The notes under the pieces are model-generated. The model saw only the letters and a list, made by a program, of their open reading frames with translations. It searched no databases and was not told where the DNA came from. Shown one piece after another: positions 4,457 to 25,110 of a DNA stretch of 25,202 nt. Position numbers and translations under genes: made by a program. Position 1 is the stretch's first letter. Each line of letters opens with the position of its first letter. Source of the DNA: an uncultured virus (IMG/VR IMGVR_UViG_3300028025_000094) (Duplodnaviria; Heunggongvirae; Uroviricota; Caudoviricetes); IMG/VR virus record IMGVR_UViG_3300028025_000094; one strand, given 5' to 3'.

Positions 4457-5395
4457 AAATACCCGTACGAATAAAAAACCCTATATGAGGCACCCTTGGG
4501 CAGGCTTAGAGAAGACCTCGGGTAAAGACCCCTAAAAGTGCTCTTGAGTAACCCCCTCCTCTGCGTGTGTTTTAGGCAGGGGGTTCCCGGGGGGACCCCA
4601 CATGGCTTGGTATCCCGGATCCCTACCGAAATTTATCACGGTAATCCTTGAATTCTCTCGTGAAGCCGCCCCGAAATTTTTTCCAGTAAGGACTTAGCTG
4701 TGGGGGTGCCTTCACGGATTTTTTCCAGTAAACCCCAGATTTTCTAGGAATTCTTTCCACTAAGTCCTAGAACTCTGGGAAGTCTGGGAGGTTCTGAGAG
4801 AACTCCCCGAAAGGAAGAATAGTTGCAGAACCCAACCAATTCGGTGAGGGTGCCCCTACGGAGTTAATCCGTTATATCAGGATCTAACCTAGAGGTCTAG
4901 GAAATGAATGAGATTCCAGGGATAGCTTCGTGAGTGCTCCCCGGCAGGTTTCCGAGAGCTCCCCGCTTCCCCCCTCTGAGAGAATCCCCGGATGCTACGA
5001 GAAATCCTGGGGAGTGTGGAATAGGGCAAAAGTGGTTGGGGCGCCCTCACTTGCTGGGGATATACCTTGGATTCTCCCCGTAACAAAAGTTTCATAAAAA
5101 AGTTTCGGGGGTACGAATTCTCTTTGGAATTCCCCGTCTTTTCTTAGCCGAGGTGCCCTCACCCGATGACCATATCCTGGGTTTTTTCTGGGTCTAAAAG
5201 TGAGTAGCAACAGGGTCTAAAAATGACCAGCGGGGAATTTCTAAGAATCCCCGTTCACACATCCATTTTGGCTAGCACCCAAAAGGATGTGTGGGCGCCC
5301 TCACTGACTGCGGCCTGTTCCCGCATTTTCCCCGATACATTTTAATTCTGCGGGGTTCATTCTTATATTTGCCTTGTAATTAAAACAACACGACC

Positions 5396-5593
5396 ATGTC
5401 AAAAAAGTATGAACACGGGTACTTACCCAAAATCCAGTATCATTCTCTACAAGTAGTAGAGAGAACCGCCAACCTCATGGAACCCAACCTACCTGAGGAA
5501 TTCAAAGTCGGTGAGTTAGAAGCTCTTAATAAGAGTCTAGACTCTATCATTTACTTCACCACTAAAATAAGAGAACAATGGACCTTAAAGTAA
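5396..5593 (+). CDS. hypothetical protein
   Basis: Follows promoter 5338 with an AAACAACACGACC leader. Confidence 0.85.
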   Translation: MSKKYEHGYLPKIQYHSLQVVERTANLMEPNLPEEFKVGELEALNKSLDSIIYFTTKIREQWTLK

Positions 5594-5826
5594 ACTTTGA
5601 TTGGGACTATCCCCATGGAGCAGGAAAATTCCTTTGGGCAGTTATCTCAGTAGATGAAGATGACTCCGAGGATAGTAATGTTAGTCTTTGGAGAGCGGAT
5701 GATGAAGAACACCTATATGACCAAGTCAAAAGGGACTGGGTAGGTGATGATGAAGAGATAGCAGATGACTTTGAAGAGGCTTGGGCATATAGAATTATCC
5801 CTAAGAGACTAGGAGAAATTCTTTAG
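5578..5826 (+). CDS. acidic hypothetical protein
   Basis: 82-aa D/E-rich ORF overlapping the upstream stop. Confidence 0.8.
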   Translation: MDLKVNFDWDYPHGAGKFLWAVISVDEDDSEDSNVSLWRADDEEHLYDQVKRDWVGDDEEIADDFEEAWAYRIIPKRLGEIL

Positions 5827-5879
5827 GCATTTTTTTAATCCGCCTACGGGCTTTACTTTTACCTTCTAAAACACACACG

Positions 5880-6374
5880 ATGTCACAAGATTTAATGGTT
5901 TATGTTGGAGCTTACATAGAGATAACTAAGCTCCCTAAGGTTTGGGAAGAGGTTGAGAACGAAAGATTCAACCACCCAGAATGTAAAAAGAAGTGCGATC
6001 ACTCCTACTTAACTAACACAGCTAAGTTCTGTCCTTCATGTGGTAAGCCGGTTGAGGTAGTGATAGAGAAATTAAAGGCTGTGAAGCAATGGGATATGGC
6101 AGACCTTGAACATGAATTCTGTGAGGTCTTTAATTGGCCTAATGGTATGGGCTGGGGTGGATGTGAAGAATTGGATAAAGTCCTAATGCCACATGATGGT
6201 GGTAAATGGGGTAAGTACTATGAAGACAACGGGTTTGGCATCCTGGGTAAACTTCCCAAGTTAGCCAACCCCGAAGGAATTCTAAAAACCAAGTTCTCCA
6301 AGGACTTAGCTGACTTAGAAAAGATAGGTGCTAAGTACGTTATCAAAACTGGGATCTTGGCGTATTACGTATAA
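5880..6374 (+). CDS. zinc-ribbon-containing hypothetical protein
   Basis: C...C and AKFCPSCG motifs; promoter 5828. Confidence 0.85.
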   Translation: MSQDLMVYVGAYIEITKLPKVWEEVENERFNHPECKKKCDHSYLTNTAKFCPSCGKPVEVVIEKLKAVKQWDMADLEHEFCEVFNWPNGMGWGGCEELDKVLMPHDGGKWGKYYEDNGFGILGKLPKLANPEGILKTKFSKDLADLEKIGAKYVIKTGILAYYV

Positions 6375-6590
6375 ATGATAACAGAATATAAAATAGTTAA
6401 GACGAATTACACCGCGGCGGACTTGGAGCAAGAAGTTAACCAAGCGATTGGGGAAGGGTGGCAACCCTGGGGTCAACCCGCAGTTGCCCTTAGTTCTAAC
6501 GGAGCTCTTTATGTCCAAGCGCTAGTCAAGTACAGTTCCCACCCGGATGAGTGGCAAACTCTGAATGAGGAACAAACGGGCAGGGTTTAA
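6375..6590 (+). CDS. DUF1737-like protein
   Basis: YKIV...LEQEVNQAIGEGWQPWG...YVQALVK. Confidence 0.75.
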   Translation: MITEYKIVKTNYTAADLEQEVNQAIGEGWQPWGQPAVALSSNGALYVQALVKYSSHPDEWQTLNEEQTGRV

Positions 6591-6694
6591 GGGATTGAGA
6601 AAAAATCCTGGAACACATGTGGGATATCAAAATATAAGTGTTATATTTGCGAAATGATTAGCAGCAATGTAATTCTTAACTAAAATGTAATTAA

Positions 6695-6946
6695 ATGACA
6701 AGTTCAGAACTTCGAAGCCGTTTACTTAACCATGGGCGACGCCCACTCGGTAAATTAATTCAAGTACCTCTCAAGCAAGAAGGCAAGATCCTTTTCGCTG
6801 ATATCAAAAATGATAGAGCATATTCTTATTTTCTAATTGACCTTGAATCCAAATCTATCCGTGAAGGTCATATCTACGAGCGTTATCGTAAAAAGGTATT
6901 TGGTGCCTATGACGTTCCCTCTATCCCATTAGGAGCTTCCCTTTAA
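6695..6946 (+). CDS. hypothetical protein
   Basis: 83-aa ORF after TATATTTG at 6642. Confidence 0.75.
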   Translation: MTSSELRSRLLNHGRRPLGKLIQVPLKQEGKILFADIKNDRAYSYFLIDLESKSIREGHIYERYRKKVFGAYDVPSIPLGASL

Positions 6947-7015
6947 TTTTTAAGTCGCATTTTAAATTTCCGAGGAGGGGTTGTATATTTGCCTTGTAAA
7001 TAAATACACACGCAC

Positions 7016-7276
7016 ATGTACATTATCTTTAATCTAGACCCCGATGGCGATTCCTACTCTCTTCATGGTAGGATAGAAGACGCCCGTTACATCTTTGACC
7101 TCAAGGTAAAGGAATGGAGTAAGGCAGTTAACAACCGAGAGGAAGTTGGCTGGGACGATTACAAAACACTTCTATGTCACATCACCGATCTCACAAACTT
7201 TGGGTTTGGTGGTTACGGAGAAGTTTTCGGAATGGAACTTATTGATTCACTAAATTGGGAAGGAGACCAAGAATAG
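7016..7276 (+). CDS. hypothetical protein
   Basis: Promoter 6958, ACACACGCAC leader. Confidence 0.85.
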   Translation: MYIIFNLDPDGDSYSLHGRIEDARYIFDLKVKEWSKAVNNREEVGWDDYKTLLCHITDLTNFGFGGYGEVFGMELIDSLNWEGDQE

Positions 7277-7278
7277 TT

Positions 7279-7578
7279 ATGACACTACACGAATATCTAA
7301 ATCAGACCGACCCACAGAGAATGCCAGACGTGATTCTTCAAGAAGGAGAATACGAGGTTTGGAACACCGCTGGTGTTAAACCCTACAGGTTCACTCATAT
7401 CAGCGTTCCCTCAGTTAAAGGTAGCTATTCAGTTAAGGAAGGAGAGACTACCCTTTACACCCAAGACGCATTTGGCTATCCTAAGAGTCGTAGTTGTTTC
7501 AGCCTTGACAAACCATTAGAGAACCTAGTCAATTATGAAAGAGTAGGTCACAGTCACAATCCAAGCATTAACTCATGA
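7279..7578 (+). CDS. hypothetical protein
   Basis: Start moved to ATG 7279 (MTLHEYL), just after the upstream stop. Confidence 0.75.
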   Translation: MTLHEYLNQTDPQRMPDVILQEGEYEVWNTAGVKPYRFTHISVPSVKGSYSVKEGETTLYTQDAFGYPKSRSCFSLDKPLENLVNYERVGHSHNPSINS

Positions 7579-7685
7579 TAACAATTTTAGCATTAGCACT
7601 TCTGGCTACCGTTTCTATTTGGGGTACGATTGATATACTAAGTCAAATTAATCGAAACGAGAATGAGGGGAAGAAATCTAACTGA
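7575..7685 (+). CDS. small single-TM protein (not in ORF track)
   Basis: MITILALALLATVSIWGTIDILSQINRNENEGKKSN; ATGA overlap with the upstream gene. Confidence 0.6.
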   Translation: MITILALALLATVSIWGTIDILSQINRNENEGKKSN

Positions 7686-7800
7686 GTATCAAAAGGAATT
7701 GATTCATGAAAAGAAAGAAGAGGGAAAACCCATCAAGGTGATTGCCCAAGAGATAGGGAGATCTTATTCCTGCATCTATTTTCATTTAAAGAATAATTAA
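7663..7800 (+). CDS. stand-alone helix-turn-helix protein, 45 aa (not in ORF track)
   Basis: MRGRNLTEYQKELIHEKKEEGKPIKVIAQEIGRSYSCIYFHLKNN; LT..Q...I......G.....IA..IGRS...I pattern of HTH_38/Hin-type HTH. Confidence 0.75.
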   Translation: MRGRNLTEYQKELIHEKKEEGKPIKVIAQEIGRSYSCIYFHLKNN

Positions 7801-7820
7801 GAAAAACCAAACCAACTGCT

Positions 7821-7848
7821 AAAGCCAGACCTAGTGTCTGGTTTTTTT
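7821..7848 (+). terminator. intrinsic terminator
   Basis: AAAGCCAGAC-CTAGT-GTCTGGTTTTTTT. Confidence 0.85.
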
Positions 7849-8018
7849 GTGGCCTTTCCTACAGGAATTTGCCATATGGCTGGAATTCCGGTGAGGGCGC
7901 CCTGACCACAGGCTGGGTGATTTTCGACATCCGAAACTTATTGTAAATGTTTCATCGGGGCATTTTTTATTTTCGAAACATTTCATTACTTTAGCTGTGT
8001 TATAAAAACCCGCACGAT

Positions 8019-8507
8019 ATGTCAAAAGAAGTTCAATTTCCAAAGATCCCAACGGATCCACACAGTCTAGCTCTTTTAGGATCACTAGATACTATATCCT
8101 TTAGTATTCTAAATGCTCCTGAAGATGATTATGCATTTAGATGCGCGGCTTTCCTACACTTCCTAGCCACCGCACCCTTATCTGCAGATTACATTTATTT
8201 CAAGGTTCATGAAAACACTAGAGATATGTGCAGAAGTCTAAGCGATCATTACAATCATTACATTCACTCTCAAGGAGAAGCATATAAGCTTGAAATTCTT
8301 AATAGGGAGATTGGTTCATTTGGGAATCACTTTAATAGTTTTCAATTGTCCCTTTTCCACATAGATCTTAAAGCCAAGCAAAATCCAAATTGGGTACCTC
8401 TCAGTGATTTGATTTGGGGATTCTATTGCTCTCTATACAATCACAAGAGAAGCAATCAATTCCTAGAACTATTTCAGTCCACATTAAAAAATATTCAGAC
8501 CTCATAG
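8019..8507 (+). CDS. hypothetical protein
   Basis: 162-aa ORF after promoter 7961. Confidence 0.85.
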   Translation: MSKEVQFPKIPTDPHSLALLGSLDTISFSILNAPEDDYAFRCAAFLHFLATAPLSADYIYFKVHENTRDMCRSLSDHYNHYIHSQGEAYKLEILNREIGSFGNHFNSFQLSLFHIDLKAKQNPNWVPLSDLIWGFYCSLYNHKRSNQFLELFQSTLKNIQTS

Positions 8508-8584
8508 GAGAACATTTTTTATTTCCGCAGTCCAGTCTTATATTTACACTGTTATTAATTTAAAACCATAAAAATTTAACTCAC

Positions 8585-9121
8585 ATGGCAAATCTCACAT
8601 TTTCCAACAAAGGCATCCCAATGGGACGCAACAAGTCAGTCGCAGTAAACGCAAACTCCCATTGGAGTGCAGAGGAAGACAACTTCCTTCGCATGGCAGC
8701 TGCCCAGAACATGACAACCACTTTGGTTGCTTCTAAATTAGGTCGTACCCCAGCATCTGTTTACACCCGTAAATGGCAATTGGACATTCAGAACGACAAG
8801 GCAATGCCTAGAATCAAAGCACCCAAGACTGCTAAGGTAGTTAGAACAAAGACTGCTCAGGCAGTTAAAGTTCCAAAAGGAGTTCAGTTATTTCAATTGG
8901 AATCAGGCATTCCAGTTCCATCAAAAGGTGGCAACGAAGTACTTAAGAACCAAATTCGTTCCACATTCAATCGCATGGAAATTGGTAACTCATTTGTGAT
9001 TAACAAAGAAGCACTTAACTCAACAGTGTACATTGCTAAGAACGAATTTGGAGCCTACAGAATTAAAACAAGCGCTACCACTCCTGATAAAAAATTCTTT
9101 AGAATTTTCAGGATAGCTTAA
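8585..9121 (+). CDS. putative DNA-binding protein (N-terminal Myb/GcrA-like HTH, basic linker, C-terminal ESGIPVP...MEIGNSF domain)
   Basis: WSAEEDNFLR...VASKLGRTPASVYTR motif; Lys-rich; promoter 8513. Confidence 0.7.
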   Translation: MANLTFSNKGIPMGRNKSVAVNANSHWSAEEDNFLRMAAAQNMTTTLVASKLGRTPASVYTRKWQLDIQNDKAMPRIKAPKTAKVVRTKTAQAVKVPKGVQLFQLESGIPVPSKGGNEVLKNQIRSTFNRMEIGNSFVINKEALNSTVYIAKNEFGAYRIKTSATTPDKKFFRIFRIA

Positions 9122-9143
9122 AGGTTAGGTTTTAGATTACCCA

Positions 9144-9175
9144 AGGGTCTCATCGAAAGATGAGGCTCTTTTTTT
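9144..9175 (+). terminator. intrinsic terminator
   Basis: AGGGTCTCATC-GAAA-GATGAGGCTCT-TTTTTT. Confidence 0.9.
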
Positions 9176-9294
9176 GTGGGCCAAGGAATCGAACCCAAAC
9201 CGCTCGGTAAAACCTGGTTGGGGCGCCCTCGCGAATTATCCATATGGCGAGAAATCTTTTTCCCGAATGGGTATATAATGTAAAATCAAAAACA

Positions 9295-9417
9295 ATGAGC
9301 GTAGAAAATTTTGTAGATGTCGTTGTCTTTTTAATCAAGATAACTTTCGCAGCTGGTATCCTTGCTTTGGTGCTAAAGATAGCATCGGATATCTTTAAGA
9401 GTAAGGACGACAAATAA
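9295..9417 (+). CDS. small membrane protein, 40 aa (not in ORF track)
   Basis: MSVENFVDVVVFLIKITFAAGILALVLKIASDIFKSKDDK; class II-like motif at 9270. Confidence 0.65.
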   Translation: MSVENFVDVVVFLIKITFAAGILALVLKIASDIFKSKDDK

Positions 9418-9454
9418 TTTTTATTTACGGATTCTATTGATTACATTTGTAATC

Positions 9455-9536
9455 TGAAATTAAACACTTGCCAGTGTTTAGTTAAATGGTTAGGGTTAGT
9501 AAGTTATAAAAGAGAGGGTGGTTCCTCTCTTTTTTT
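9455..9536 (+). ncRNA. candidate small RNA (~80 nt)
   Basis: TACATTTG box 9442-9449, hairpin TAAACACT-TGCC-AGTGTTTA, GU-rich linker, terminator AGAGAGG..CCTCTCT-TTTTTT; only a 7-codon ORF inside. Confidence 0.55.
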
Positions 9537-9596
9537 GTGCGCATTTTTTCCTCCCGAAAAAGTTTCATATATTTGAATAACATAAAACACACACGT

Positions 9597-10034
9597 ATGT
9601 CAACTAATTCAAGAATCGGAAAATTACTTCCAGACGGAAGAGTAAGAGCTATTACATGTCACTTTGACGGATATGTAGAAGGAGGAGTCGGAGAAGATTT
9701 GTTAAAGTACTATAGCGATTCAACAAAGGTAGATTCGCTATTGGACTTAGGTAATCTATCCGCTCTCGGAAAAGAAATTGGAGAACAACAGGACTTCAAT
9801 GATTTCACATCTCATAATCAAAATTGGTGTTTAGCGTATGGAAGAGATCGGGGAGAATCGAAGATGGAATCCAAGATTGTCTCGCTAGAAGAATTCCAAA
9901 CCAATCTCGATTGGCCTTACCTCTATCTTTTTAAAGAAGGCGAATGGACTTTTCTGGATACATATAATAGATATTCAGGCTGGCAAACAATCAGCTCTTC
10001 ATTAAATAATATAAACCCTGAAGATGAAAATTAA
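9597..10034 (+). CDS. conserved phage hypothetical protein (MSTxSRIG...CHxDGY type)
   Basis: Start moved to 9597 (the track start lies in the promoter region); CHFDGY, LGNLS, CLAYGRDRGE motifs. Confidence 0.85.
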   Translation: MSTNSRIGKLLPDGRVRAITCHFDGYVEGGVGEDLLKYYSDSTKVDSLLDLGNLSALGKEIGEQQDFNDFTSHNQNWCLAYGRDRGESKMESKIVSLEEFQTNLDWPYLYLFKEGEWTFLDTYNRYSGWQTISSSLNNINPEDEN

Positions 10035-10329
10035 TAATCCATTTGAAACATACAGTAGAGGCATGACTGCTAGAGAAAGAAGAATTCGCAGTAGATGGGC
10101 TTTAATGTTTGTTATTAGTTCACTGATTGCAATTTGGTTAATGGTTAAAGTAAGCAATCAGGAAAACGAGATTGATGAATTAACCCGGAAAAATTCGGAA
10201 CTGCGTGATGAATTCTTCATCTCATCTACGGTTAACGGCAGGTATGAATTATCTTTGGAGTTTTTAAAAGAGATCGATTCAGTGGCTGCTAAAGAGTTCG
10301 AGGAGTTCTACGATCACCAGACTGAATAA
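10024..10329 (+). CDS. membrane-anchored coiled-coil protein
   Basis: TM segment WALMFVISSLIAIWLMV followed by a heptad region. Confidence 0.8.
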   Translation: MKINNPFETYSRGMTARERRIRSRWALMFVISSLIAIWLMVKVSNQENEIDELTRKNSELRDEFFISSTVNGRYELSLEFLKEIDSVAAKEFEEFYDHQTE

Positions 10330-10355
10330 TTTTTTAACCTTTAAATATAAGAGAG

Positions 10356-10466
10356 ATGGGATACTATGAGATTGTTAAAGGTACTCCAGGTGGAACTGTG
10401 AAAAAGCCTAAACCTAAACCTAAACCAAGAAAATCCAAGAGCAATGAAAAATCACGACTACTATAA
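10356..10466 (+). CDS. small basic KP-repeat peptide (not in ORF track)
   Basis: MGYYEIVKGTPGGTVKKPKPKPKPRKSKSNEKSRLL. Confidence 0.45.
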   Translation: MGYYEIVKGTPGGTVKKPKPKPKPRKSKSNEKSRLL

Positions 10467-10569
10467 TAAGAAGTACGAAAACTATGAGAGACAGAATACC
10501 GTTAAGGGTTGGATCAAACATATCTATCTTGTGTTACTTTCTCTTATAGTTAAACCTCCCTATAAATAA
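10444..10569 (+). CDS. small hypothetical protein (not in ORF track)
   Basis: MKNHDYYNKKYENYERQNTVKGWIKHIYLVLLSLIVKPPYK. Confidence 0.5.
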   Translation: MKNHDYYNKKYENYERQNTVKGWIKHIYLVLLSLIVKPPYK

Positions 10570-10604
10570 AGACCGTGTGTGTTGAGATTCTTTTAGAATC
10601 TCGG

Positions 10605-10631
10605 AGACCAGCAGCAATGCTGGTCTTTTTT
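10605..10631 (+). terminator. intrinsic terminator
   Basis: AGACCAGCA-GCAA-TGCTGGTCT-TTTTT, preceded by hairpin GAGATTC..GAATCTC. Confidence 0.9.
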
Positions 10632-10635
10632 GCGT

Positions 10636-10668
10636 AGGGGGATATGGGAAGGACCCCGCACGCGTACG
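10636..10668 (+). repeat. Element B copy 1 (33-bp G-rich element)
   Basis: AGGGGGATATGGGAAGGACCCCGCACGCGTACG. Confidence 0.9.
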
Positions 10669-10702
10669 TGGATACATATAGACAAATACGTCTATAACAC
10701 AC

Positions 10703-11203
10703 ATGAGCAACTTATATTTCAATCTAGGAAGTATTCTATCAGAGGAAGAATGTGATAACCTTGCACTGGAGGTTTTTGAACACCTCGAAAAAGGATCGGT
10801 GATTGCAGAAAGAGATACCCGATATTACAAAAACTCATTCGGTGGATCCACCCCTGGATCTTGGGAATGCCTAAAAAGGTTTACACCCTTAGTAATAGAA
10901 AAGAGCGGCAGGAATCTAAAGCCGGCTAATCCTTATTGTCGTATTTACAATAATGAATCAACTCTTAATCCACATAAAGATCGTGAGGGCTTGGATTGGA
11001 CCATTTCGGTTTGTCTATTTACTAATCTCAAACATGATTGGCCTTTAATAGTAAAAGGAGAAGAAGGCAATGTCGAATTCCGTACGATCACCGGTGAGGG
11101 CAACCTCGTTGCTGGACGCACGTTGGAACATTGGAGAGAACCTTTGGAGTGTGGGAGTGATGAATACGTGGTTCAGATGTTTCTCCATTGGTCTGAGGAG
11201 TAG
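10703..11203 (+). CDS. 2OG-Fe(II) oxygenase-like protein (prolyl hydroxylase type)
   Basis: YCRIY...L.PHKDR (HxD), TISVCL, HWREPL (distal His), VQMFLHW. Confidence 0.8.
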   Translation: MSNLYFNLGSILSEEECDNLALEVFEHLEKGSVIAERDTRYYKNSFGGSTPGSWECLKRFTPLVIEKSGRNLKPANPYCRIYNNESTLNPHKDREGLDWTISVCLFTNLKHDWPLIVKGEEGNVEFRTITGEGNLVAGRTLEHWREPLECGSDEYVVQMFLHWSEE

Positions 11204-11288
11204 GCGCCCTCACCAACTTTCGCGGTCGTCCCGCGGATGTTTTTTATCCGCATTTTTATTACCAACACCTGATCATTACTTTTGCACC

Positions 11289-11525
11289 ATGATAAACACC
11301 AAATTAGCAATTGTAAGATCAACAATCAACCTTAGAGGACATAGATTTCCTGCAGGAACGGTTGTTAGGGTATGGGAGACTAGTAGTGTCACATCAATTC
11401 AACCCGCAGTATTACCCACACCACTCCATGAAGCGATGTGGTACTTATTCCCCGAGATTCATTTAAAGGACCTTAGAAAGTTAGAGGATCACGAATGTCA
11501 GTTAGTTGATTACGGAATCTACTAG
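11289..11525 (+). CDS. hypothetical protein
   Basis: Start moved to 11289 (MINTKL), after promoter 11251. Confidence 0.7.
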   Translation: MINTKLAIVRSTINLRGHRFPAGTVVRVWETSSVTSIQPAVLPTPLHEAMWYLFPEIHLKDLRKLEDHECQLVDYGIY

Positions 11526-11577
11526 CATTTTTTTCTAGCGAGGTATAGTATTACTTTTACCTCATAAAACACACGAC

Positions 11578-11790
11578 ATGAAAAAAGAAGCACTAGAACT
11601 AGTTCGTAAAATCTATCAAAGTCTTAAATGGGATCTCATGTCTCAGAAAGACCTTGAAGAGGTATTTAACGCAGCGAAAACACAAGCAAAATTTCTTTGT
11701 GAAAAATTAACAGAAGAGAACAAGGACAGACAAGAGAAGTATGAGATGCTTCTTTCCGAGATTGAAAAAATAAAATTCCAAATGGTATGA
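11578..11790 (+). CDS. hypothetical protein
   Basis: Promoter 11526, AAACACACGAC leader. Confidence 0.85.
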   Translation: MKKEALELVRKIYQSLKWDLMSQKDLEEVFNAAKTQAKFLCEKLTEENKDRQEKYEMLLSEIEKIKFQMV

Positions 11791-17651: not shown

Positions 17652-17818
17652 GTGGTCCAAATCTTTGGAAAGAGAAAACGCCATGCTAAAACGGGTCGGG
17701 GCACCCTCACTGATGTTAGCATGTTTTTTGTGACAGTAATCTTCAAATTTATTTTCGAGGCATTTTTTTATTACGCCTCTTTTTCTTATATTTGCTTTAT
17801 ACTTAAACACACACTCGC

Positions 17819-18124
17819 ATGAACATTAAAAAATTATCAGAAGAAAAAACGATTAACGGTACTTCATTCTATGACGATGTTTTCAGTGCATCTCCACAGC
17901 AATTGATTGATGCCTTTGGACCTCCTTCCTATTCTAACAATGATGGAGAAGGTAAAGTAAACATGGAATGGGAACTGGAACTTGGAGAAGGAATCGTTTT
18001 CACAATTTATGATTGGAAGGAATACCGCAAACTTTCCATGGACGAGGAAATTGAATGGCACATTGGGGCTCACGACCAATCTTCATCAACTCAGGCTATT
18101 CTAGAATTGCTTGAACACTTCTAA
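17819..18124 (+). CDS. conserved phage hypothetical protein (KV..EW...FTIYDWK...WHIG)
   Basis: Promoter 17761; motif series recalled from phage hypotheticals. Confidence 0.85.
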   Translation: MNIKKLSEEKTINGTSFYDDVFSASPQQLIDAFGPPSYSNNDGEGKVNMEWELELGEGIVFTIYDWKEYRKLSMDEEIEWHIGAHDQSSSTQAILELLEHF

Positions 18125-18140
18125 ATCCCAAACAGATTTA

Positions 18141-18169
18141 AAAGCCCGGACTTAGGTCTGGGTTTTTTT
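18141..18169 (+). terminator. intrinsic terminator
   Basis: AAAGCCCGGAC-TTAG-GTCTGGGTTTTTTT. Confidence 0.85.
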
Positions 18170-18256
18170 GTGGGTAAAGATTCCGGGTGGACCGAAGTAC
18201 ACGTGGGTAAAGGCGCCCTCACGATTCTCAGAATCGAATTTGAGATACATATGAAT

Positions 18257-18478
18257 ATGAAACACATTAAACTCTTTGAAGACTTTGGAGCATTGGAGGT
18301 TGAACCTTATCAAGTTCCCACTCAAATACAATGTAATAAATGTGGCTGGAATTGGAATTCCACCCAATCATCAGAGGAAGACCTTTATGTCTGTCACAAG
18401 TGTGGAGCAGATAATAAGGTTTTCTATGAGGGAGAACCTGATGATGAAGAATCAACTTCTGACTTAGAAGGGGCATAG
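18257..18478 (+). CDS. MKH-leader zinc-ribbon protein
   Basis: Start moved to MKHIKLFEDF; CNKCGW...CHKCG; GATACATA 18244. Confidence 0.8.
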   Translation: MKHIKLFEDFGALEVEPYQVPTQIQCNKCGWNWNSTQSSEEDLYVCHKCGADNKVFYEGEPDDEESTSDLEGA

Positions 18479-18509
18479 GGGGATGGGGGAAGGACCCCGC
18501 ACGCGTACG
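18477..18509 (+). repeat. Element B copy 4
   Basis: Identical to 16666-16698; overlaps a stop codon. Confidence 0.9.
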
Positions 18510-18650
18510 AGAGAAAAATCACAAGATATAAGTTAGAGAGAGCTGGTGAGGGTGCCGCCACACCGATAATAATCCGAAGCATCCGAATTCTTACATTTTT
18601 TTATTTCGAGGATTTATTCTATATTTGCCTTGTACTTAAACACACACGAC

Positions 18651-18833
18651 ATGAAAAGAAAAATCATTGATGCAGGAATCAAATTCCTAGAAGAAAGAGG
18701 AATATTTAACCAGGAACATTATCTCGTTTCTCTCCAAGGACCCACCTTTATTTTCACCTCTGTTGGTTCTACCATGTTAAATGATGAAATAAAATCAGGG
18801 ATACAGGAAAGAGGAATACTAATTCTGGCTTAA
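18651..18833 (+). CDS. hypothetical protein
   Basis: Start moved to 18651 after promoter 18594 and a CACACACGAC leader. Confidence 0.8.
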   Translation: MKRKIIDAGIKFLEERGIFNQEHYLVSLQGPTFIFTSVGSTMLNDEIKSGIQERGILILA

Positions 18834-18856
18834 ATCCATTCACCTTACAGAATCTT

Positions 18857-18888
18857 AAAAATCTAGACAAATTTGTCTAGATTTTTTT
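18857..18888 (+). terminator. intrinsic terminator
   Basis: AAAAATCTAGACA-AATT-TGTCTAGATTTTTTT. Confidence 0.9.
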
Positions 18889-19002
18889 GTGAGTGTTATA
18901 ATAGTTGGACAGTAGTTAAACTATGAGTGGGCGCCCTCACTCCGCATAGCGACAGATTTGCTCTTCGGAGTAAGATATATAAATCACAAAATAACTCAAA
19001 GA

Positions 19003-19275
19003 ATGAAACACATTAAAAAATTCGGTGAACTCACAGAAAGTTTCTGGGATTATAACTTCGGTAAACCCACAGTTAAAGATGCAGCTCATGATTCATTAAG
19101 GGGTCAAGGATTCAGTCACACTAAAAAAGACGATGCTGGAACTCAGACAATGGTCTTTAATGGTCAAGAATTTTATCCCGATCAAATCCAATATGCTGAT
19201 TATGGAGATGTTGGAGAAATACCAAGAATAGAAGGAGATAAACTAATAGTTGCTAATCCAGCTTGGTCTATGTAA
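19003..19275 (+). CDS. MKH-leader hypothetical protein
   Basis: MKHIKKFGELTES; GATATATA 18974. Confidence 0.8.
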   Translation: MKHIKKFGELTESFWDYNFGKPTVKDAAHDSLRGQGFSHTKKDDAGTQTMVFNGQEFYPDQIQYADYGDVGEIPRIEGDKLIVANPAWSM

Positions 19276-19294
19276 CTTTCACATAACCTTTTTT

Positions 19295-19324
19295 AAAAAG
19301 CCAAACCTAGTGTTTGGTTTTTTT
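19295..19324 (+). terminator. intrinsic terminator
   Basis: AAAAGCCAAAC-CTAGT-GTTTGGTTTTTTT. Confidence 0.85.
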
Positions 19325-19539
19325 GTGGCCTGCCTCGAAAGTGGCTGAGGGCGCCCCGACGGAAAGAACCACACTTTTCCCTTTTTTGGGTTTTAATCCC
19401 GGAGGTGCCCTCACCCCGATTCACATCCGAAACTTTCCTTGGATAATTTGAAACATTTCCTCGAAACATTTTTTATCTTCGGGGATTTATTTTATATTTG
19501 CCTTGTACTTAAATCCACAAACCTCAAAAAATTAAAAAA

Positions 19540-19944
19540 ATGGTAAACTTTCAAGTATCCCTCAGAGAACAAATCGAAGCATTTGAATTGGAAAAAAGAA
19601 TCATTGGCGATTATGAACATTGCTCCGGATTCTATGATTGGTTCTGTTCGGACAAAGCCTTACCCGGCAAAGCAATGAATCTTATGCCCAAGGTTATTAA
19701 ATTCGCTAAAGCCAAAGGAATAGATTTGGATAGACATTACGTTTGGTTCAAGAACAACTGTCCTTTTAACGGACCATTATACGATGATTTTCGTATTGCC
19801 TCATTAGAAACCGGAGATACAGTCTTCACTGTTACGCCTAAGTGTGGACACACAGGTTTAGCAGAAGTCTACGGCCAAGAGAATCTTTGGAACGGACCGA
19901 TTCATCAGGCTTCAACTTGGTCACAACTAGCAAGCACATTTTAG
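19540..19944 (+). CDS. conserved phage hypothetical protein (YDWFC...YVWFKNNCP..GPLYDDFRI)
   Basis: Promoter 19467; 134 aa. Confidence 0.85.
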   Translation: MVNFQVSLREQIEAFELEKRIIGDYEHCSGFYDWFCSDKALPGKAMNLMPKVIKFAKAKGIDLDRHYVWFKNNCPFNGPLYDDFRIASLETGDTVFTVTPKCGHTGLAEVYGQENLWNGPIHQASTWSQLASTF

Positions 19945-19962
19945 AACCTTCAATAAAAATGT

Positions 19963-20118
19963 ATGAGTATCCAAGAATTAAAAGAACAAATGCAGGAAGA
20001 CCTAATAAGTCTGTTGGAAGGAATAGGCATCGAAGATGCACTAGCCCCAGAGGATTGGGAAAACCTAAAGAATGAAGTTGGCGAAATAGTTATCTCCAAC
20101 ATCAATAGATTAAACTAA
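19963..20118 (+). CDS. small acidic protein (not in ORF track)
   Basis: MSIQELKEQMQEDLISLLEGIGIEDALAPEDWENLKNEVGEIVISNINRLN; ends just before a terminator. Confidence 0.75.
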   Translation: MSIQELKEQMQEDLISLLEGIGIEDALAPEDWENLKNEVGEIVISNINRLN

Positions 20119-20121
20119 TCG

Positions 20122-20155
20122 AAAATGGCCTGGGATTTTATCTCAGGCCATTTTT
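20122..20155 (+). terminator. intrinsic terminator
   Basis: AAAATGGCCTGGGAT..ATCTCAGGCCATTTTT. Confidence 0.85.
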
Positions 20156-20363
20156 GTGCGCGGTGGAAAAGCATTTACGCTGACGGAATCGAGGTGAGGG
20201 TGCCGCCACATCGAGATTTTATTTGGGGTCGGATTTGGAAATCAACCGAGGGTGCCCTCACCTGAAGACCTGGAAAAATTCTTTTTTGGGGTCGGATTCG
20301 GAAATCATCCGAGGGTGCCCTCACCTCGATAACCTCGGTCTCATTTCTGATAGGATCTGCATC

Positions 20364-20396
20364 AGGGGGATGGTGGGAGGACCCCGCGCTCGCGAA
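20364..20396 (+). repeat. Element B copy 5 (variant)
   Basis: AGGGGGATGGTGGGAGGACCCCGCGCTCGCGAA. Confidence 0.85.
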
Positions 20397-20457
20397 GGGG
20401 GTTTTCATTTTTATTCCTCGCAGTCTCACATTATATTTGTATTCTAAAACCACACAT

Positions 20458-20748
20458 ATGAAAAGTTATGAAATGTACTCAGCAGCCGGAGATAAGGCCT
20501 GCGAAACACTAGTTAATCGAATCTGCAAAAAGATTCATTCAAACGTTAGGGTCACAAGAGAGGAAATAGCAGGGGAAATCGAGAAGGGACAGATGCTCAT
20601 TGCCCTCATCTATCCAGAAGTTCATGACACTGAACCGCGAGGTCATATTTGTCATGACATAAGTAAGGCATTAAAAGATGCAGGATATGGATTCTTTATA
20701 GATTCATATGTTAATACCTGCGAGGGAGTATATCCGTATTATAGTTAG
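20458..20748 (+). CDS. hypothetical protein
   Basis: Start moved to 20458; MYSAAGDKAC...EVHDTEPR. Confidence 0.85.
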   Translation: MKSYEMYSAAGDKACETLVNRICKKIHSNVRVTREEIAGEIEKGQMLIALIYPEVHDTEPRGHICHDISKALKDAGYGFFIDSYVNTCEGVYPYYS

Positions 20749-20772
20749 ATTTGGGTTAAAGTTTAAAGTGTT

Positions 20773-20803
20773 AAAGGCCCAGGATTTTGTCCTGGGTTTT
20801 TTT
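20773..20803 (+). terminator. intrinsic terminator
   Basis: GGCCCAGGA-TTTTG-TCCTGGGTT-TTTTT. Confidence 0.85.
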
Positions 20804-20998
20804 GTGGGTGTTGGTTAAGGTTAGCTACAGGTAAACAGTGAGAGGCTGCCCCAGCGAAGAAAAAGGACCGGCCTAAAAATCATTAGGGGGTGCCCTCGCA
20901 CAGATTCACATGCAGATTCACATCCAAAAAGAATTCTTAAACATTTTTATTATCCGGGGAAAATCATTACTTTTACCTCATACCAAATAACTAAACAC

Positions 20999-21199
20999 AT
21001 GAGCAAAAGAACAACCTTACTAGTTCCAGTGGAATTCTACATTCCGGATGAAATTCGTTCCCGATTAGATAAGTTAAAAATTTCTCCAGAGATTCAAGAA
21101 GAAGCATTAGCTGATGCGATTTTCACTTATGTACAAGAAAGATTTCTAGTTGATGAAAGAGAAGAGATAATCGAACATGTTAAAAACTGGGAAGAGTAA
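20999..21199 (+). CDS. hypothetical protein
   Basis: Promoter 20942. Confidence 0.85.
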   Translation: MSKRTTLLVPVEFYIPDEIRSRLDKLKISPEIQEEALADAIFTYVQERFLVDEREEIIEHVKNWEE

Positions 21200-21216
21200 T
21201 CTTCCTTCCCCAACAG

Positions 21217-21246
21217 AAAACCTGAGATAATCCCTCAGGTTTTTTT
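21217..21246 (+). terminator. intrinsic terminator
   Basis: AAAACCTGAG-ATAATCC-CTCAGGTTTTTTT. Confidence 0.85.
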
Positions 21247-21442
21247 GTGGGTGTTAGTTAAGGTTAGCTACAGGTAAACAGCGTGAGGACGCCCCAGCGA
21301 GGAAAAAGGACCGGCCTAAAAATCATTAGGGGGTGCCCTCACCCCGATTCACATACGTTTTCACATCCAAAAAGAATTCGGTAACATTTTTTTATTTCGG
21401 GGGAAATCTGTATATTTGCCTTACACTTAAAAACATAACATC

Positions 21443-21871
21443 ATGTCAAAAATCAATCAAATCATTGTCAACCCAGAAATTCCCCAAACCCCTAAGTCGT
21501 CTAAAGAAACTCTTAATTCTCTTAAAAAAGAATTAGAGGTTTTAGGAGGAAAAGTTTTCTTAGGTTTTGTTCACCCAACTCTTTATGGGCCAGTTAGAAA
21601 TCTTAACTTTATTTTAGAAGGACCCAATCCAGAATTCTTAGATAAGTATTTAACAAATCCCCAAAAAGATATTGTAGTTGATGTTTGGAAAGAAACTATG
21701 ATGGCAACTCAACTAATGGTTCTTCCTTGGGAAATGAGTTTAACCTGTGAAATTAATCCTCCCACATTTAAAACAATTAAAGAATCAGAGATTTACATTC
21801 GAAAAAAGTTAGCGGATAATAAACAAAAGAATATTAATGATCCCTTCTTTTATCGAAAAGGAACAATCTAA
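21443..21871 (+). CDS. hypothetical protein
   Basis: Promoter 21385; 142 aa. Confidence 0.85.
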   Translation: MSKINQIIVNPEIPQTPKSSKETLNSLKKELEVLGGKVFLGFVHPTLYGPVRNLNFILEGPNPEFLDKYLTNPQKDIVVDVWKETMMATQLMVLPWEMSLTCEINPPTFKTIKESEIYIRKKLADNKQKNINDPFFYRKGTI

Positions 21872-21879
21872 AAAATCAG

Positions 21880-21911
21880 AAACCCTTAGGAAAATCACCT
21901 AAGGGTTTTTT
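21880..21911 (+). terminator. intrinsic terminator
   Basis: AAACCCTTAGG-AAAATCA-CCTAAGGGTTTTTT. Confidence 0.9.
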
Positions 21912-22100
21912 GTGGGGTTTACTTAAGCTTAACAGTAGCTAAGCGGGGTGAGGACGCCTCGACGAAAAAAAAAGCTAGCCTAAAAAATAGGGAGGCGCCC
22001 TCGCACAAAAAAGCATTGATGCTGATTCTCAGGTTTTGCATCACGAGGTAGCCCTCACGCCGTTTGTCTATGTGATTTGGATATATAAAATAAAAAAGAA

Positions 22101-22484
22101 ATGAAGCACTTAAGATTATACGAAGAGTTTAAAGAAGGACCAATGAGAAAAGAACCTTCTATTTTCCAGAAAATGTACAAAGGAGCTAAAGACTTTATTG
22201 GCATTGAGTCTAGTGAAGATAGAGAGAGATATGAAGACGTAGTTCGCATGATAACCATGAATGATTCTTACGGACTTAAGAAGAGCATTAGAGAAATTAA
22301 ACCGGGTGTGGTTGTAATGTGGTTAAATGACCAGAGTCTAACAATCGATACAGTTACTCCTGAGATTATTTGGAGAGGTAAGGTTTTAGATTTAAATGAT
22401 ACCCAGGAATCAGTAAACTATCTTTACAGTAGAATTAAGGATTACATAAACACTCCTCAGATGACTCAAGGTTTGAGAAGATAA
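22101..22484 (+). CDS. MKH-leader hypothetical protein
   Basis: MKHLRLYEEF, the first 10 aa identical to 2713..3333; GATATATA 22080. Confidence 0.85.
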   Translation: MKHLRLYEEFKEGPMRKEPSIFQKMYKGAKDFIGIESSEDRERYEDVVRMITMNDSYGLKKSIREIKPGVVVMWLNDQSLTIDTVTPEIIWRGKVLDLNDTQESVNYLYSRIKDYINTPQMTQGLRR

Positions 22485-22505
22485 AAATTAGTGTTTCATA
22501 AAAAT

Positions 22506-22535
22506 AAAAACCCAGGCTTAGGTCTGGGTTTTTTT
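22506..22535 (+). terminator. intrinsic terminator
   Basis: AAAACCCAGGC-TTAG-GTCTGGGTTTTTTT. Confidence 0.85.
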
Positions 22536-22641
22536 GTGGGTGGTGCCCTCACCACGATAACCTCGGGTTTCGATTCTTTAACTCACATTTTTATTTGTCG
22601 CGGAAATGATTTACATTAGCCTCATACTAATACACATACAT

Positions 22642-22818
22642 ATGATTCAGTTCAAAAACATTCTGCATTACATTACAAGAGATTCAGTTATCAATCTTCC
22701 TCTTCTGGTACAAATTCGAAGATGTAAGATGGAACAAGAAGGTTTCCAAACAGATAATATTAACTGGGAACATTACACCAGGGTTCTAATAGCTAAACAA
22801 AAAGCTTTAAAAGATTAG
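22642..22818 (+). CDS. hypothetical protein
   Basis: Start moved to 22642 (MIQFKN), after promoter 22586. Confidence 0.75.
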   Translation: MIQFKNILHYITRDSVINLPLLVQIRRCKMEQEGFQTDNINWEHYTRVLIAKQKALKD

Positions 22819-22820
22819 GC

Positions 22821-23039
22821 ATGAGAAAGACCTTTGAGATAGAAAGGATAAAGGCATTCGTTAATGAGCAACTCGCTAACGATCAAAACACCTTGGATGA
22901 AAAGCAAGGTATGATATCCGTGCTGGAACACGTGCTTCTTCGCAGTGATTCTTATCGGGGATTTATGTTTCTGGATGTAGGGGAAGAATCTATTGGACCT
23001 CCTGGTAGTCCGAAGCATGTTAGAAGAAAGTATTTCTAG
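22821..23039 (+). CDS. hypothetical protein
   Basis: MRKTF...VLEHVL....YRGF; operon spacing. Confidence 0.8.
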   Translation: MRKTFEIERIKAFVNEQLANDQNTLDEKQGMISVLEHVLLRSDSYRGFMFLDVGEESIGPPGSPKHVRRKYF

Positions 23040-23057
23040 CAGGAAGGGAGATTAATG

Positions 23058-23084
23058 AGTCTGAGAGCAATCTCAGACTTTTTT
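23058..23084 (+). terminator. intrinsic terminator
   Basis: AGTCTGAGA-GCAA-TCTCAGACT-TTTTT. Confidence 0.9.
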
Positions 23085-23089
23085 GTGTG

Positions 23090-23122
23090 TGGGGGATAGG
23101 GGGAGGACCCCGCGCTCGCGAG
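23090..23122 (+). repeat. Element B copy 6 (variant)
   Basis: TGGGGGATAGGGGGAGGACCCCGCGCTCGCGAG. Confidence 0.85.
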
Positions 23123-23353
23123 AGGGTTTTTAGGGATTTCTTCCTTTTAGAAAGCTTTCTAAATTCTAGTGAGTCCGCCCCAAATCGATTCAACCACTTA
23201 GTAATCAGCATGTTAGAAGAAAGTGTAAAAGATGTACAAATCGGAGAGAGCACCCCCGCAGGTGAGATCTGCAGAATTAACCTCTCATACATTTTATTAC
23301 CTCGGGGAAATCTTGTATATTTGCCTTATAATTAATCACTAAAAATCACGACT

Positions 23354-23533
23354 ATGTTTGAAGAACAAATTTCACAAGTAATTAGAGTATTCCAATCCCT
23401 AGATGGGGTTTCAAAATGGGCATTTACATTTTGGATGGTATGTGCTGCAGCTTTCTATGGCATGTTAGTTTACATTATGGGATTACTTATTAGAGAAGGA
23501 ATACTTAGAATCTCTAGACTCTCTAGAATTTAG
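23354..23533 (+). CDS. small membrane protein, 59 aa (not in ORF track)
   Basis: MFEEQISQVIRVFQSLDGVSKWAFTFWMVCAAAFYGMLVYIMGLLIREG...; promoter 23290. Confidence 0.75.
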   Translation: MFEEQISQVIRVFQSLDGVSKWAFTFWMVCAAAFYGMLVYIMGLLIREGILRISRLSRI

Positions 23534-23553
23534 AAAACACACTTAACAAAATT

Positions 23554-23579
23554 AAACCTGGATAACACCAGGTTTTTTT
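23554..23579 (+). terminator. intrinsic terminator
   Basis: AAACCTGG-ATAACA-CCAGGTTTTTTT. Confidence 0.8.
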
Positions 23580-23820
23580 GTGGGGTAACTTTTTTAAAAA
23601 ATTCTATAAACTTCTAGTGAGAGCACCCCCGCGAATTTTAAACTATAAAACTTTTTGTAAAGGCGCCCTCGCGGGTTTTCTGGATACAGCCTGAATATTT
23701 CCCAATCTCTCTCAAAAAATCCACGAGGTAGCCCTCACTAGAGAACTTGGAATTCTTTCCGTGCTCATTTTTTTCTTTCGCGGATAATTCATATATTTGC
23801 CTTACACTAAATAACACACA

Positions 23821-23982
23821 ATGGAAAGATTTAAATGTTGTCTATGCGACAAAGAAGTAGAAGGATTTGGAAACAACCCCGATCCACTAGGAACCGGAAC
23901 TGAAGATGAAGAATGCTGCGATGAGTGTAATCAAGAAAAGGTTATACCTGCTAGGCTAGAACTTCTTCTGAAAGGAGGTTAA
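23821..23982 (+). CDS. small zinc-finger protein, 53 aa (not in ORF track)
   Basis: MERFKCCLCDKEVEGFGNNPDPL...CCDECNQEKVIPARL; promoter 23766. Confidence 0.85.
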   Translation: MERFKCCLCDKEVEGFGNNPDPLGTGTEDEECCDECNQEKVIPARLELLLKGG

Positions 23983-24054
23983 TCCCACATACCTGCGGAA
24001 ACATTTTTTACTTCCGCAGGTTTTCTTTACTTTAGGATTATAAATAAATCAATC

Positions 24055-24261
24055 ATGACAAAAAGAACCTTTATTATCGTATCAGTCCTTTATTTTGTTG
24101 CCACAGCACTTTTCTGTTTCGCATTATACACAGATGGACATCCAACCTTATCAATGGGCATAGCAAGCCTAGCAACCGTGTCATGGACCTGTGTTAAGAT
24201 AGCTGTTGAGACCAATGGATTTAAAACCCCTCGTCGAAAAAACAAACCTCAGACATTTTAA
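24055..24261 (+). CDS. two-TM membrane protein
   Basis: Two hydrophobic segments and a basic tail; promoter 24002. Confidence 0.8.
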   Translation: MTKRTFIIVSVLYFVATALFCFALYTDGHPTLSMGIASLATVSWTCVKIAVETNGFKTPRRKNKPQTF

Positions 24262-24306
24262 TTCCTCGAGGAAAAGTCTTACATTTACCTTATAAAACAC
24301 AAGAAC

Positions 24307-24543
24307 ATGAAATGGATTTTTGAAGTAATAAAATATATTCTAGGATTCCTTTATCTAGCATGGAAGGGATTAGCATTCATCCTCATAGGCACAGCCTATT
24401 TCATTTGGGAATTTAGAATCTCATCATATAAGAAAGTCTGGGATTATCTCTTTGAAGACTTTTATACTCACAGAGACGGGGCAACGACCTACTGGACTTA
24501 CAAGACAATGGACGACTGGGTGAAAGGAGAAAGAACAAGATAA
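24307..24543 (+). CDS. membrane protein
   Basis: Hydrophobic N-terminal half; promoter 24254. Confidence 0.8.
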   Translation: MKWIFEVIKYILGFLYLAWKGLAFILIGTAYFIWEFRISSYKKVWDYLFEDFYTHRDGATTYWTYKTMDDWVKGERTR

Positions 24544-24584
24544 AAGAAAATAGTGTTTGTGGTTAGTTAATAAGTGTTAACGAG

Positions 24585-24613
24585 AAGCCTTCCAAGAAAT
24601 TGGAAGGTTTTTT
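24585..24613 (+). terminator. intrinsic terminator
   Basis: AAGCCTTCCAA-GAAA-TTGGAAGGTTTTTT. Confidence 0.9.
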
Positions 24614-24661
24614 ATGTGGGATGGGCCTAAGGATTCTTAGGCATTCTTATAGCTTATACTA

Positions 24662-25110
24662 GTGAGGGCACCTCCACGGATAAAAACCAAAAAAACCCAA
24701 AAAAGGGAAACTTAGGGTTTTTTAAATCGGGGTGCCCCCGCGGAAAATCAAAAAAGAGAAATTATAAAATTTAAACGGGGGGTGCCCCCACGGAAAAACT
24801 AAAAAAAAGTTTTTTTAGAAAATCAAATCGGGGTGCCCCCACGGAAAAAAAAGGAAGGAAGGGAAAAAAAGGAAAAAGAGAGAATTCCCATAGTGGGCGC
24901 CCTCACGGGTAAGGAAAATTAGGTTTTTTTGGAAATGCCATTATTTTAAATCGGGGTGCCCCCACAGAGAAAACCATTTAAAAAAATTTTAAGGCTATCT
25001 TAGTATGGGGTGCCCTCGCGGGTTGATTATAGTCTTTCTATAATGAGGAGGTCTCACAGTCAAAATAGGGACCAAAAAAAGCTCTATTACATCCCCCGGG
25101 GTGCCCCCAC
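24662..25110. repeat. array of 8-9 site A copies separated by A/T-tract spacers
   Basis: Starts 24662, 24726, 24776, 24827, 24891, 24950, 25004, (25042), 25095; period mostly 50-64 bp; no ORF. Confidence 0.85.

Follow-up and report, generated by a model that had tools for sequence, protein, structure and literature searches.

Introduction

Short elements repeated many times between the genes of a phage have been described in a few systems. The PeSL cassettes of T4-type phages are linkers that combine a terminator with a host-sigma early promoter and recur among small ORFans (PMC2839356, PMC4122927). SPBRE is an intergenic motif of roughly 15 bp that is located at many promoters of SPbeta phages and is bound by the phage repressor MrpR (PMC10516654). 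Cluster O mycobacteriophages, which are non-temperate, carry about 34 copies of a 17-bp inverted repeat, the function of which is left unexplained in the section describing it (PMC4351075), while the 21-nt repeats of TLS are presented in their source as direct repeats, not as a dyad (PMC11447400). In the present study, we describe site A, a loop-less 16-bp dyad that is repeated along one 20-kb block of a 25,202-nucleotide stretch of DNA from the uncultured virus IMGVR_UViG_3300028025_000094 (Caudoviricetes). This whole stretch is hereafter called the window.

The DNA belongs to a Bacteroidetes-type jumbo phage from freshwater that is apparently lytic. The window had no megablast match to GenBank phages, and distant blastn returned one 49-bp match. 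An earlier note, prepared from the letters of the window alone, had proposed that site A serves (a) cassette shuffling, (b) parS-like loading of a protein, or (c) repression or insulation of the domain. On balance, and with some reserve, we consider it probable that site A represents the sites of a phage-encoded double-stranded DNA-binding protein that coats the early block and shuts it off or insulates it, with recombination at these sites as a by-product.

Results

Site A is a real element. A scan of the window with a symmetric position weight matrix (PWM; score >=11 or >=12) returned 42 copies spanning 4660-25110 and none before 4400, compared with a mean of 0.6-0.8 and a maximum of 3-4 in 50 shuffles; the matrix was trained on the same sites, which makes this comparison slightly circular. 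The consensus gave 25 matches at <=3 mismatches versus a mean of 0.14 and a maximum of 2 in 100 shuffles. Three copies, at 22043, 22537, and 23723, are weaker, with PWM scores of 9.5-10.7. The left half is perfect in 7 and the right half in 15 of the 42 copies, and none has both halves perfect, for which 2.5 copies were expected (Fisher p of about 0.03, hand calculation). Alignment of 36 of the 42 sites, each turned so that its better half lies on the same side, shows a conserved GG-YR-CCCTCAC and a weaker 5' half, GTSGRGG, between unconserved flanks. The strong halves of doublets mostly point outward. Word searches of the open-access literature, supplements excluded, returned no description of this motif.

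By eye, site A precedes the next promoter after 18 of the 21 terminators of the block, the remaining terminators being those near 9530, 10625, and 12550. Much of the earlier description was borne out by these counts: the occupation of almost every terminator-to-promoter gap, the near absence of copies from 1-4.4 kb, and the lack of any perfectly palindromic copy were all recovered, as was the array itself, with 42 copies by PWM and a first copy at 4660 in place of about 43 from 4700. The contrast drawn there between one near-perfect and one degenerate half is better expressed as the strong and weaker halves given above. Coding sequence (CDS) is not essentially free of copies, as had been stated, because the copy at 11094 lies inside gene f23 and that at 11198 overlaps the stop codon of the same gene. 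Site A was also said to precede class II promoters; the class II box, GATATATAAA, is exact after the copies at 18925 and 22043 and degenerate after those at 9217 and 18207.

The site-A domain contains about 48 small plus-strand open reading frames (ORFs) organised as promoter-gene-terminator cassettes. Most are unannotated, and the recognisable products are ClpS, WYL_2, DUF6011, DUF1737, HTH_38, and a D5-like helix-turn-helix (HTH) protein. No tRNA or Rfam family was found in the window. Within the block are 22 class I promoters with the pattern CATTTW-N19-25-TAHHTTTR, every one of them 34 bp long; this pattern has 24 matches in the window versus 0.30 expected. These promoters end in the Bacteroidetes -7 box, for which the published consensus is TAHHTTTG (PMC6847099). 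A second repeated element, site B (GGAAGGACCCCGCACGCGTAC core), lies just upstream of promoters.

The features of the window are listed below, with the strand given where one is assigned; G and L numbers refer to related genomes and loci.

4660..25110, site-A domain with 42 copies (PWM scan, ORF list)
4200..4659, left border, GC-rich and non-coding; the G003 array has the same purine-rich element at its left edge
4660..5304, left edge cluster of site A copies at 4660, 4700, 4844, 5035, 5147, and 5289, mostly at wide spacing; likewise in G001 and G003
5338..24287, plus strand, 22 class I promoters (pattern match)
7891..7906, site A with the strong half on the left (PWM scan)
8585..9121, plus strand, f18, with an HTH (PHROG 323, T5 D5-like, E 1.6e-8) and a weak DUF7303-like domain
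9217..9232, site A ahead of a degenerate class II promoter (PWM scan)
10637..10667, plus strand, site B (GGAAGGACCCCGCACGCGTAC core), with further copies at about 13340, 16667, 18478, 20365, and 23091
11094..11213, site A pair, inside the f23 CDS (11094) and across the f23 stop (11198) (PWM scan)
13295..13310, site A (PWM scan)
14585..14661, site A doublet, 61 bp apart, strong halves outward (PWM scan)
15890..15905, site A (PWM scan)
17143..17221, site A doublet at 63-bp spacing, ahead of the mobile WYL_2 (f42) cassette (PWM scan)
17695..17710, site A (PWM scan)
18207..18222, site A at the right-hand junction of the f43 cassette, which L025, L031, and L037 lack
18546..18561, site A behind site B (PWM scan)
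18925..18940, site A ahead of the class II box GATATATAAA (18974) (PWM scan)
19345..19414, site A doublet, 54 bp apart (PWM scan)
20194..20324, site A triplet at spacings of 52 and 63 bp, where the f52 cassette is inserted in L037
20840..20899, site A doublet at 44-bp spacing; the f51+f52 deletion of L031 has its left end here
21283..21342, site A doublet at 44-bp spacing (PWM scan)
21948..22058, site A triplet at spacings of 41 and 54 bp, ahead of a class II box (22080)
22537..22552, weak site A abutting a terminator tail (PWM scan)
23244..23259, site A (PWM scan)
23617..23738, site A triplet, 40 and 66 bp apart (PWM scan)
24662..25110, right edge cluster of eight site A copies, 50-64 bp apart (last 91 bp), with A-tract spacers; kept in G001 and G002
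25111..25202, right border, a G/C-run tract, followed in G001 and G002 by two ATGCGCGTACGCAC copies

The relatives that bear a dyad are partial genomes, only 19-55% complete, and G002 and G003 were traced through alignment of an HTH protein encoded in the block. G001 is 83-87% identical to the window, and all 40 of its site A copies fall within 80.0-103.5 kb of 111 kb, in a block that lies internal to the contig. Of its 30 class I promoter matches, the interval of 80-102.5 kb contains 21, and the 80 kb beyond it contain 7. The site A block coincides with the class I promoter cluster in this genome, and site A therefore marks an island of early promoters for the host polymerase. The f23 pair is 104 bp apart in the window and in all six of the close relatives that cover the locus.

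G002 and G003 have mostly the same genes, terminator-dyad-promoter linkers, site B, and edge anatomy as the window, with the dyad consensus GNYGMGG-CG-CCCCKRC. Their dyad is similarly confined, with 31 of 31 matches in 0-17.4 kb of 132 kb in G002 and 37 of 37 in 0.3-21.8 kb of 66 kb in G003, and cross-matching is nil: the window consensus has no match in G002 or G003, and their consensus has none in G001. The edge anatomy kept in the two lineages comprises a wide-spaced left cluster, a right cluster of 7-8 copies with A-tracts, a G/C-run tract, and paired ATGCGCGTACGCAC. Site B is kept in G002, and its CGCACGCG-type tail also occurs in G005. Both window-type copies are gone from f23 of G002, in which a lineage-type copy is found inside the CDS at another codon position; this would fit selection for the presence of the dyad along the DNA, not for cassette ends. 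In G005, a different 21-bp dyad occupies the same terminator-to-promoter slot, with five copies near the contig end, while G004 has the f18 HTH gene and no array. The scan of relatives that the earlier note had proposed found the element confined to one block in G001, G002, and G003, and, in place of the uniform genome-wide spread or lack of conservation that it had named as unfavourable, these genomes show confinement together with conservation.

Several details of the dyads were also recorded. The central dinucleotide of site A is CG in 18 copies, TG in 18, CA in 6, and TA in none (n=42, hand count), and the centre of the G002/G003 dyad is nearly always CG; this pattern would fit single C-to-T changes starting from CG. 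One G001 copy (L008:6530-6550, minus strand) forms a perfect inverted repeat of 21 bp in which the centre is duplicated, and L024 has a lone left half at the corresponding position. Half-sites of the dyad of G005 are present, some seven helical turns from each other, in a 75-bp tandem repeat of this genome (L167:6466-6638). Some of the linkers beside site A are filled in both lineages by short tandem repeats of the TGTTCC/GGGACA type (window 14615-14700; L164:255-315; L024:5930-6010).

Pairing within site A was not maintained by compensatory change: across 36 of the 42 sites, none of six pairs had changed on both sides, and pairing was equally good in 457 of 500 shuffles. Four single sites folded with z of +0.80, +0.92, +0.55, and -1.75. 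A hairpin or cruciform formed by a single site A was rejected because of this lack of compensatory pairing and of significant folding, which agrees with the previous view that a loop-less dyad suits a protein. Doublets folded modestly (12 tested, z of -0.7 to -3.1), as two near-palindrome copies would, and their inner halves matched in only one of seven window doublets (by eye).

RAYT transposases are associated with REP/REPIN (repetitive extragenic palindrome) elements, which have a tetranucleotide foot and an extended hairpin. The 11-mer GGYRCCCTCAC is common to site A and to REP/REPIN-like inverted doublets of bacteria, and the doublets are of similar length; however, the bacterial ones are centred on the CCCT loop within a long perfect stem and the Verrucomicrobia copies have a GTAG foot, whereas the phage site A has no foot and pairs in 57% of cells on the REP axis. 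The REP reading was rejected on account of this pairing and the missing foot and extended hairpin. Long inverted doublets sharing the 11-mer with site A were also observed in Lentimicrobium and Omnitrophica (L047, L075, L113, and other genome loci), and, from their sequences, look like an undescribed REPIN-type family. The GGYRCC core of site A, which is the BanI-type restriction site, occurs 45 times in the window versus 9.5 expected. In three 20-kb stretches of G001 outside the block, it occurs 5, 1, and 1 times versus 4.8, 3.5, and 4.2 expected; these counts are too few to call avoidance, and a restriction-site decoy was rejected.

In the window, neighbouring copies less than 110 bp apart tend to be spaced by about 42, 53, or 63 bp (V-test for 10.5 bp, calculated by hand; p of about 0.002, n=20; gaps of 112-144 bp and the weak 4930 copy were left out). 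The spacings of G001 also cluster at whole helical turns (p<0.001, n=17), and spacers at orthologous positions are longer or shorter by about one turn (41/52, 40/53, 63/73, and 61/52).

Gene order and content differ among 12 close relatives, and indels between them map to linkers. We read the junctions by eye and aligned two of them. Seven events lie in or within 7 bp of site A, including two clean crossovers from one site A to another, namely, that of the f52 cassette between L037 and L031, within GCCCTCAC, and that of f51 and f52 together between the window and L031, within an 11-bp shared stretch. Eight events lie off site A: two at terminator tails, one at a promoter plus tail, one at site B, and four in an operon interior or promoter. 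The junction at site B is the L027 deletion, which is present on a single contig and is a possible assembly artefact. Crossovers fall in either half of site A, not at one position, and linker pieces are visibly duplicated in the window (D6, D9, and D11).

No tyrosine recombinase or integrase (PF00589), ParB_N domain, or Y1 transposase (Y1_Tnp, RAYT) was found in five partial relatives, 19-55% complete, and no resolvase (PF00239) was found in G001, the one genome searched; the recombinase, ParB-like, and RAYT genes that the earlier note had envisaged did not appear in this material. Cassette exchange, as read from the junctions, appears to match the PeSL type, which proceeds via short shared sequence, rather than a site-specific recombinase. 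Option (a) holds in the PeSL sense and fails in the sense of a dedicated site because junctions also use terminator tails, promoters, and site B; the expectation of breakpoints at site A was realised in seven events and not in the other eight. A cassette present only in G001 (L008:9040-10020, minus strand) contains a 314-aa gene with DNA methyltransferase-like motifs (by eye) and is inserted at a terminator tail.

Among candidate binding proteins, f18 has a predicted fold with an HTH and a winged-type domain (predicted local distance difference test, pLDDT, 67); it was not supported as the binding protein because its recognition helix does not track the dyad by covariation. A 45-aa HTH protein (7663-7800) has no counterpart between the flanking genes of the site-bearing L024 and G003, and the Atlas matches of the DUF6011 protein f34 were hypothetical DUF6011 clusters only.

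Other observations concern the promoters and neighbouring genes. A CG is present at the same place (about -25/-24) in 21 of the 22 class I promoters, followed by NGG in 13, while promoters of G005 and G008 mostly have GAA at this place. The CG(NGG) resembles the weak half of site A and could be a half-site for the same protein or a plain promoter element. Many genes behind a class II box start with MKH(I/L)x(L/I)(F/Y)E (window 1212-4159, 18257, 19003, and 22101; G001 and G002 genes). Internal proteins of T4 carry a capsid-targeting leader, of which this start is reminiscent, and the genes concerned may encode late-expressed, packaged proteins. Two of their products resemble ADP-ribosyltransferase-type folds (one weak ART-PolyVal match). 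The early regions of G005 (L167:4180-6365) and G008 (L181:15135-16900) contain a RecA/RadA-like ATPase gene, in G005 a weak PF00154 match, and then a conserved unknown gene; this pair is absent from the window block. One flanking gene (window 2242-2595; L168:6327-6674) lies to the left of the block in the window and G001 and to the right in G002, always pointing away. The whole-block inversion that this suggested was rejected because the downstream core is colinear.

Discussion

Site A is enriched, confined to one block, coincident with early promoters, and free of hairpin covariation; it has turned over in concert between lineages, and junctions occur at all of the shared motifs. We infer from this combination that a protein binds site A, that it is of phage origin, and that it acts in repression or insulation. 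A sequence-specific protein encoded by the phage, probably a dimer, would recognise the dyad and bind along the whole island of host-RNA-polymerase early promoters, forming a multi-site complex. This complex may silence the early cassettes once the first minutes of infection have passed, or it may stop read-through between them, and its mode would not be that of a classical operator overlapping the promoter. At the same time, crossovers for cassette gain, loss, and relocation of the PeSL type would take place in the 8-17 bp that the repeats have in common, as they would in terminator tails, promoters, and site B. Options (b) and (c) of the earlier note are favoured, as far as comparative sequence goes, by the concerted turnover and the new in-gene copy. 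As a tentative extension, to which we give a limited chance, one protein may coat the 20-kb early block as a phage 'macrodomain' via dozens of sub-optimal dyads, with the edge clusters anchoring it, and silence, compact, or position the block; the protein and its site would co-evolve so rapidly that sister lineages alter all of their 30-40 sites at once or swap the dyad.

A number of results weigh against a phage-encoded binding protein or its proposed action. Its gene was not found in the dyad-bearing relatives at their present completeness, and the f18 model matched no PDB entry at E<=0.001. The recognition helix of f18 is not the same in the window and in G001, two sequences that have site A in common, and it resembles that of G005, the dyad of which differs; moreover, G004 keeps f18 without an array. 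Seven junction events do end at site A. Complete relatives of 373 kb have an early-promoter island that lacks site A. In three complete relatives of 343-373 kb, site A has one match each genome-wide, at chance level, versus six for a control pattern, and no repeated dyad was present in the 12-20 kb examined of one of them. Site A is thus dispensable in the wider phage group, and the element, as these genomes present it, is specific to particular lineages, with copies that change in concert from one lineage to another. Site A also never overlaps a promoter core, and its distance to the promoter varies between 43 and 73 bp and shows no phasing (Rayleigh Z of about 1.2, calculated by hand; n=14). 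This variable, unphased distance indicates that site A is not a classical operator, and a fixed-distance activator was rejected for the same reason. The spacings of G002 (84, 46 seven times, 53, 45, 40, 50, and 60 bp) are dominated by 46 bp, which is off phase, and many of the 53-54 bp spacers derive from one duplicated unit, which inflates the p-values. Universal helical phasing was rejected on the spacings of G002, and phasing is suggestive in the window lineage only.

The clustering of 16-bp palindromes in one domain is reminiscent of parS in layout, and an architectural hub may be considered in which the dense edge clusters would act in replication, packaging, or DNA entry, either as iterons or as loading sites (an origin, pac, or terminal-repeat end), while the scattered copies spread or titrate the protein in a parS-like manner. 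The edge anatomy conserved in two lineages and the termini of several contigs close to the edges (the end of the window, the start of G003, and L026) are consistent with a hub; however, we regard it as rather unlikely given the lack of ParB_N in the five partial relatives, the internal position of the block in G001, and the complete relatives that do without site A. The two precise exchanges between site A copies, of f52 and of f51 with f52, and the five further events ending at or within 7 bp of one, would suit an integron- or shufflon-like system in which a dedicated recombinase excises and inserts cassettes at site A. This is improbable because eight events avoid site A, crossovers use either half and no single position, the cassettes are all in one orientation though site A is nearly symmetric, copies are also present inside a CDS and in gene-free clusters, and the searches described above yielded no tyrosine recombinase in the five relatives and no resolvase in G001.

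Slightly less probable again is that the phage has copied the site of a host transcription factor and uses it for activation or as a sponge. Site A sits upstream of host-type promoters and different hosts could explain the different dyads of the lineages; on the other hand, there is no fixed distance to the promoter, and a doublet scan of genome contigs returned at least 121 stretches, mainly REP-type doublets (Verrucomicrobia, Planctomycetes, and others), with the two Bacteroidota loci among 22 aligned stretches being long inverted repeats instead of 16-bp dyads. The gradual drift of the whole consensus also suits a co-evolving phage protein better than a host factor. The faintest chance is given to a passenger sequence with no function of its own that is homogenised by repeated copying of linkers. 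The visible duplication of linker pieces and the complete relatives lacking site A are in keeping with a passenger, but the 16-mer core is conserved between unconserved flanks, spacers turn over completely between relatives, and a new copy arose inside a CDS.

The present locus bears on the way in which lytic jumbo phages may silence dozens of independent early promoters and control a fast-shuffling accessory block. It provides a short testable site, three natural variants for covariation with a binder, and close relatives without the site. With respect to the host group, the bS21-encoding freshwater Bacteroidetes phages have genomes of 293-331 kb with a GC content of 31-34% (PMC9723584). G001-G003 encode bS21, and CheckV completeness implies about 330 kb for each; together with their Bacteroidetes-type promoters, this makes them similar to the phages in that report, a likeness by traits and not a clade assignment, while the GC content here is about 35% versus the 31-34% given there. 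No match to Gp23 was found near bS21 or elsewhere in the fragments of the relatives, and the control was likewise without any match.

As the cited sections describe them, PeSL regions and the window block are both hyperplastic, with gene gain, loss, and relocation at linkers, and the repeated joining of a host-sigma early promoter to a terminator between ORFans is present in the window block. The structured part of PeSL is a true stem-loop terminator, whereas the window has a separate terminator upstream of a loop-less dyad without pairing covariation, and its edge clusters and in-gene copies distinguish it from PeSL as presented in those sections. The SPBRE-MrpR pair provides a precedent for a bound element in many copies in promoter regions, as we propose for site A; its report describes about 10 sites in a temperate phage, in contrast to 42 sites within a single 20-kb block here, in a jumbo phage that is apparently lytic and for which no gene of the tyrosine-recombinase family was found in the five partial relatives. 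The Cluster O repeat, in the account available, resembles site A in being denser at one genome end and in having some copies inside genes; however, its arms are invariant and perfectly symmetric and it is found genome-wide, while site A never has two perfect halves and is limited to one block. The stoperators of Cluster A, described in the same source (PMC4351075), are asymmetric and are all oriented in the direction of transcription, unlike the site A doublets, which point outward. Taken together, PeSL with regard to layout, SPBRE-MrpR, and the unexplained Cluster O dyads appear to be the closest elements to site A, and the locus may separate two things that are joined in the PeSL work, namely, shuffling mediated by linkers and an element that binds a protein.

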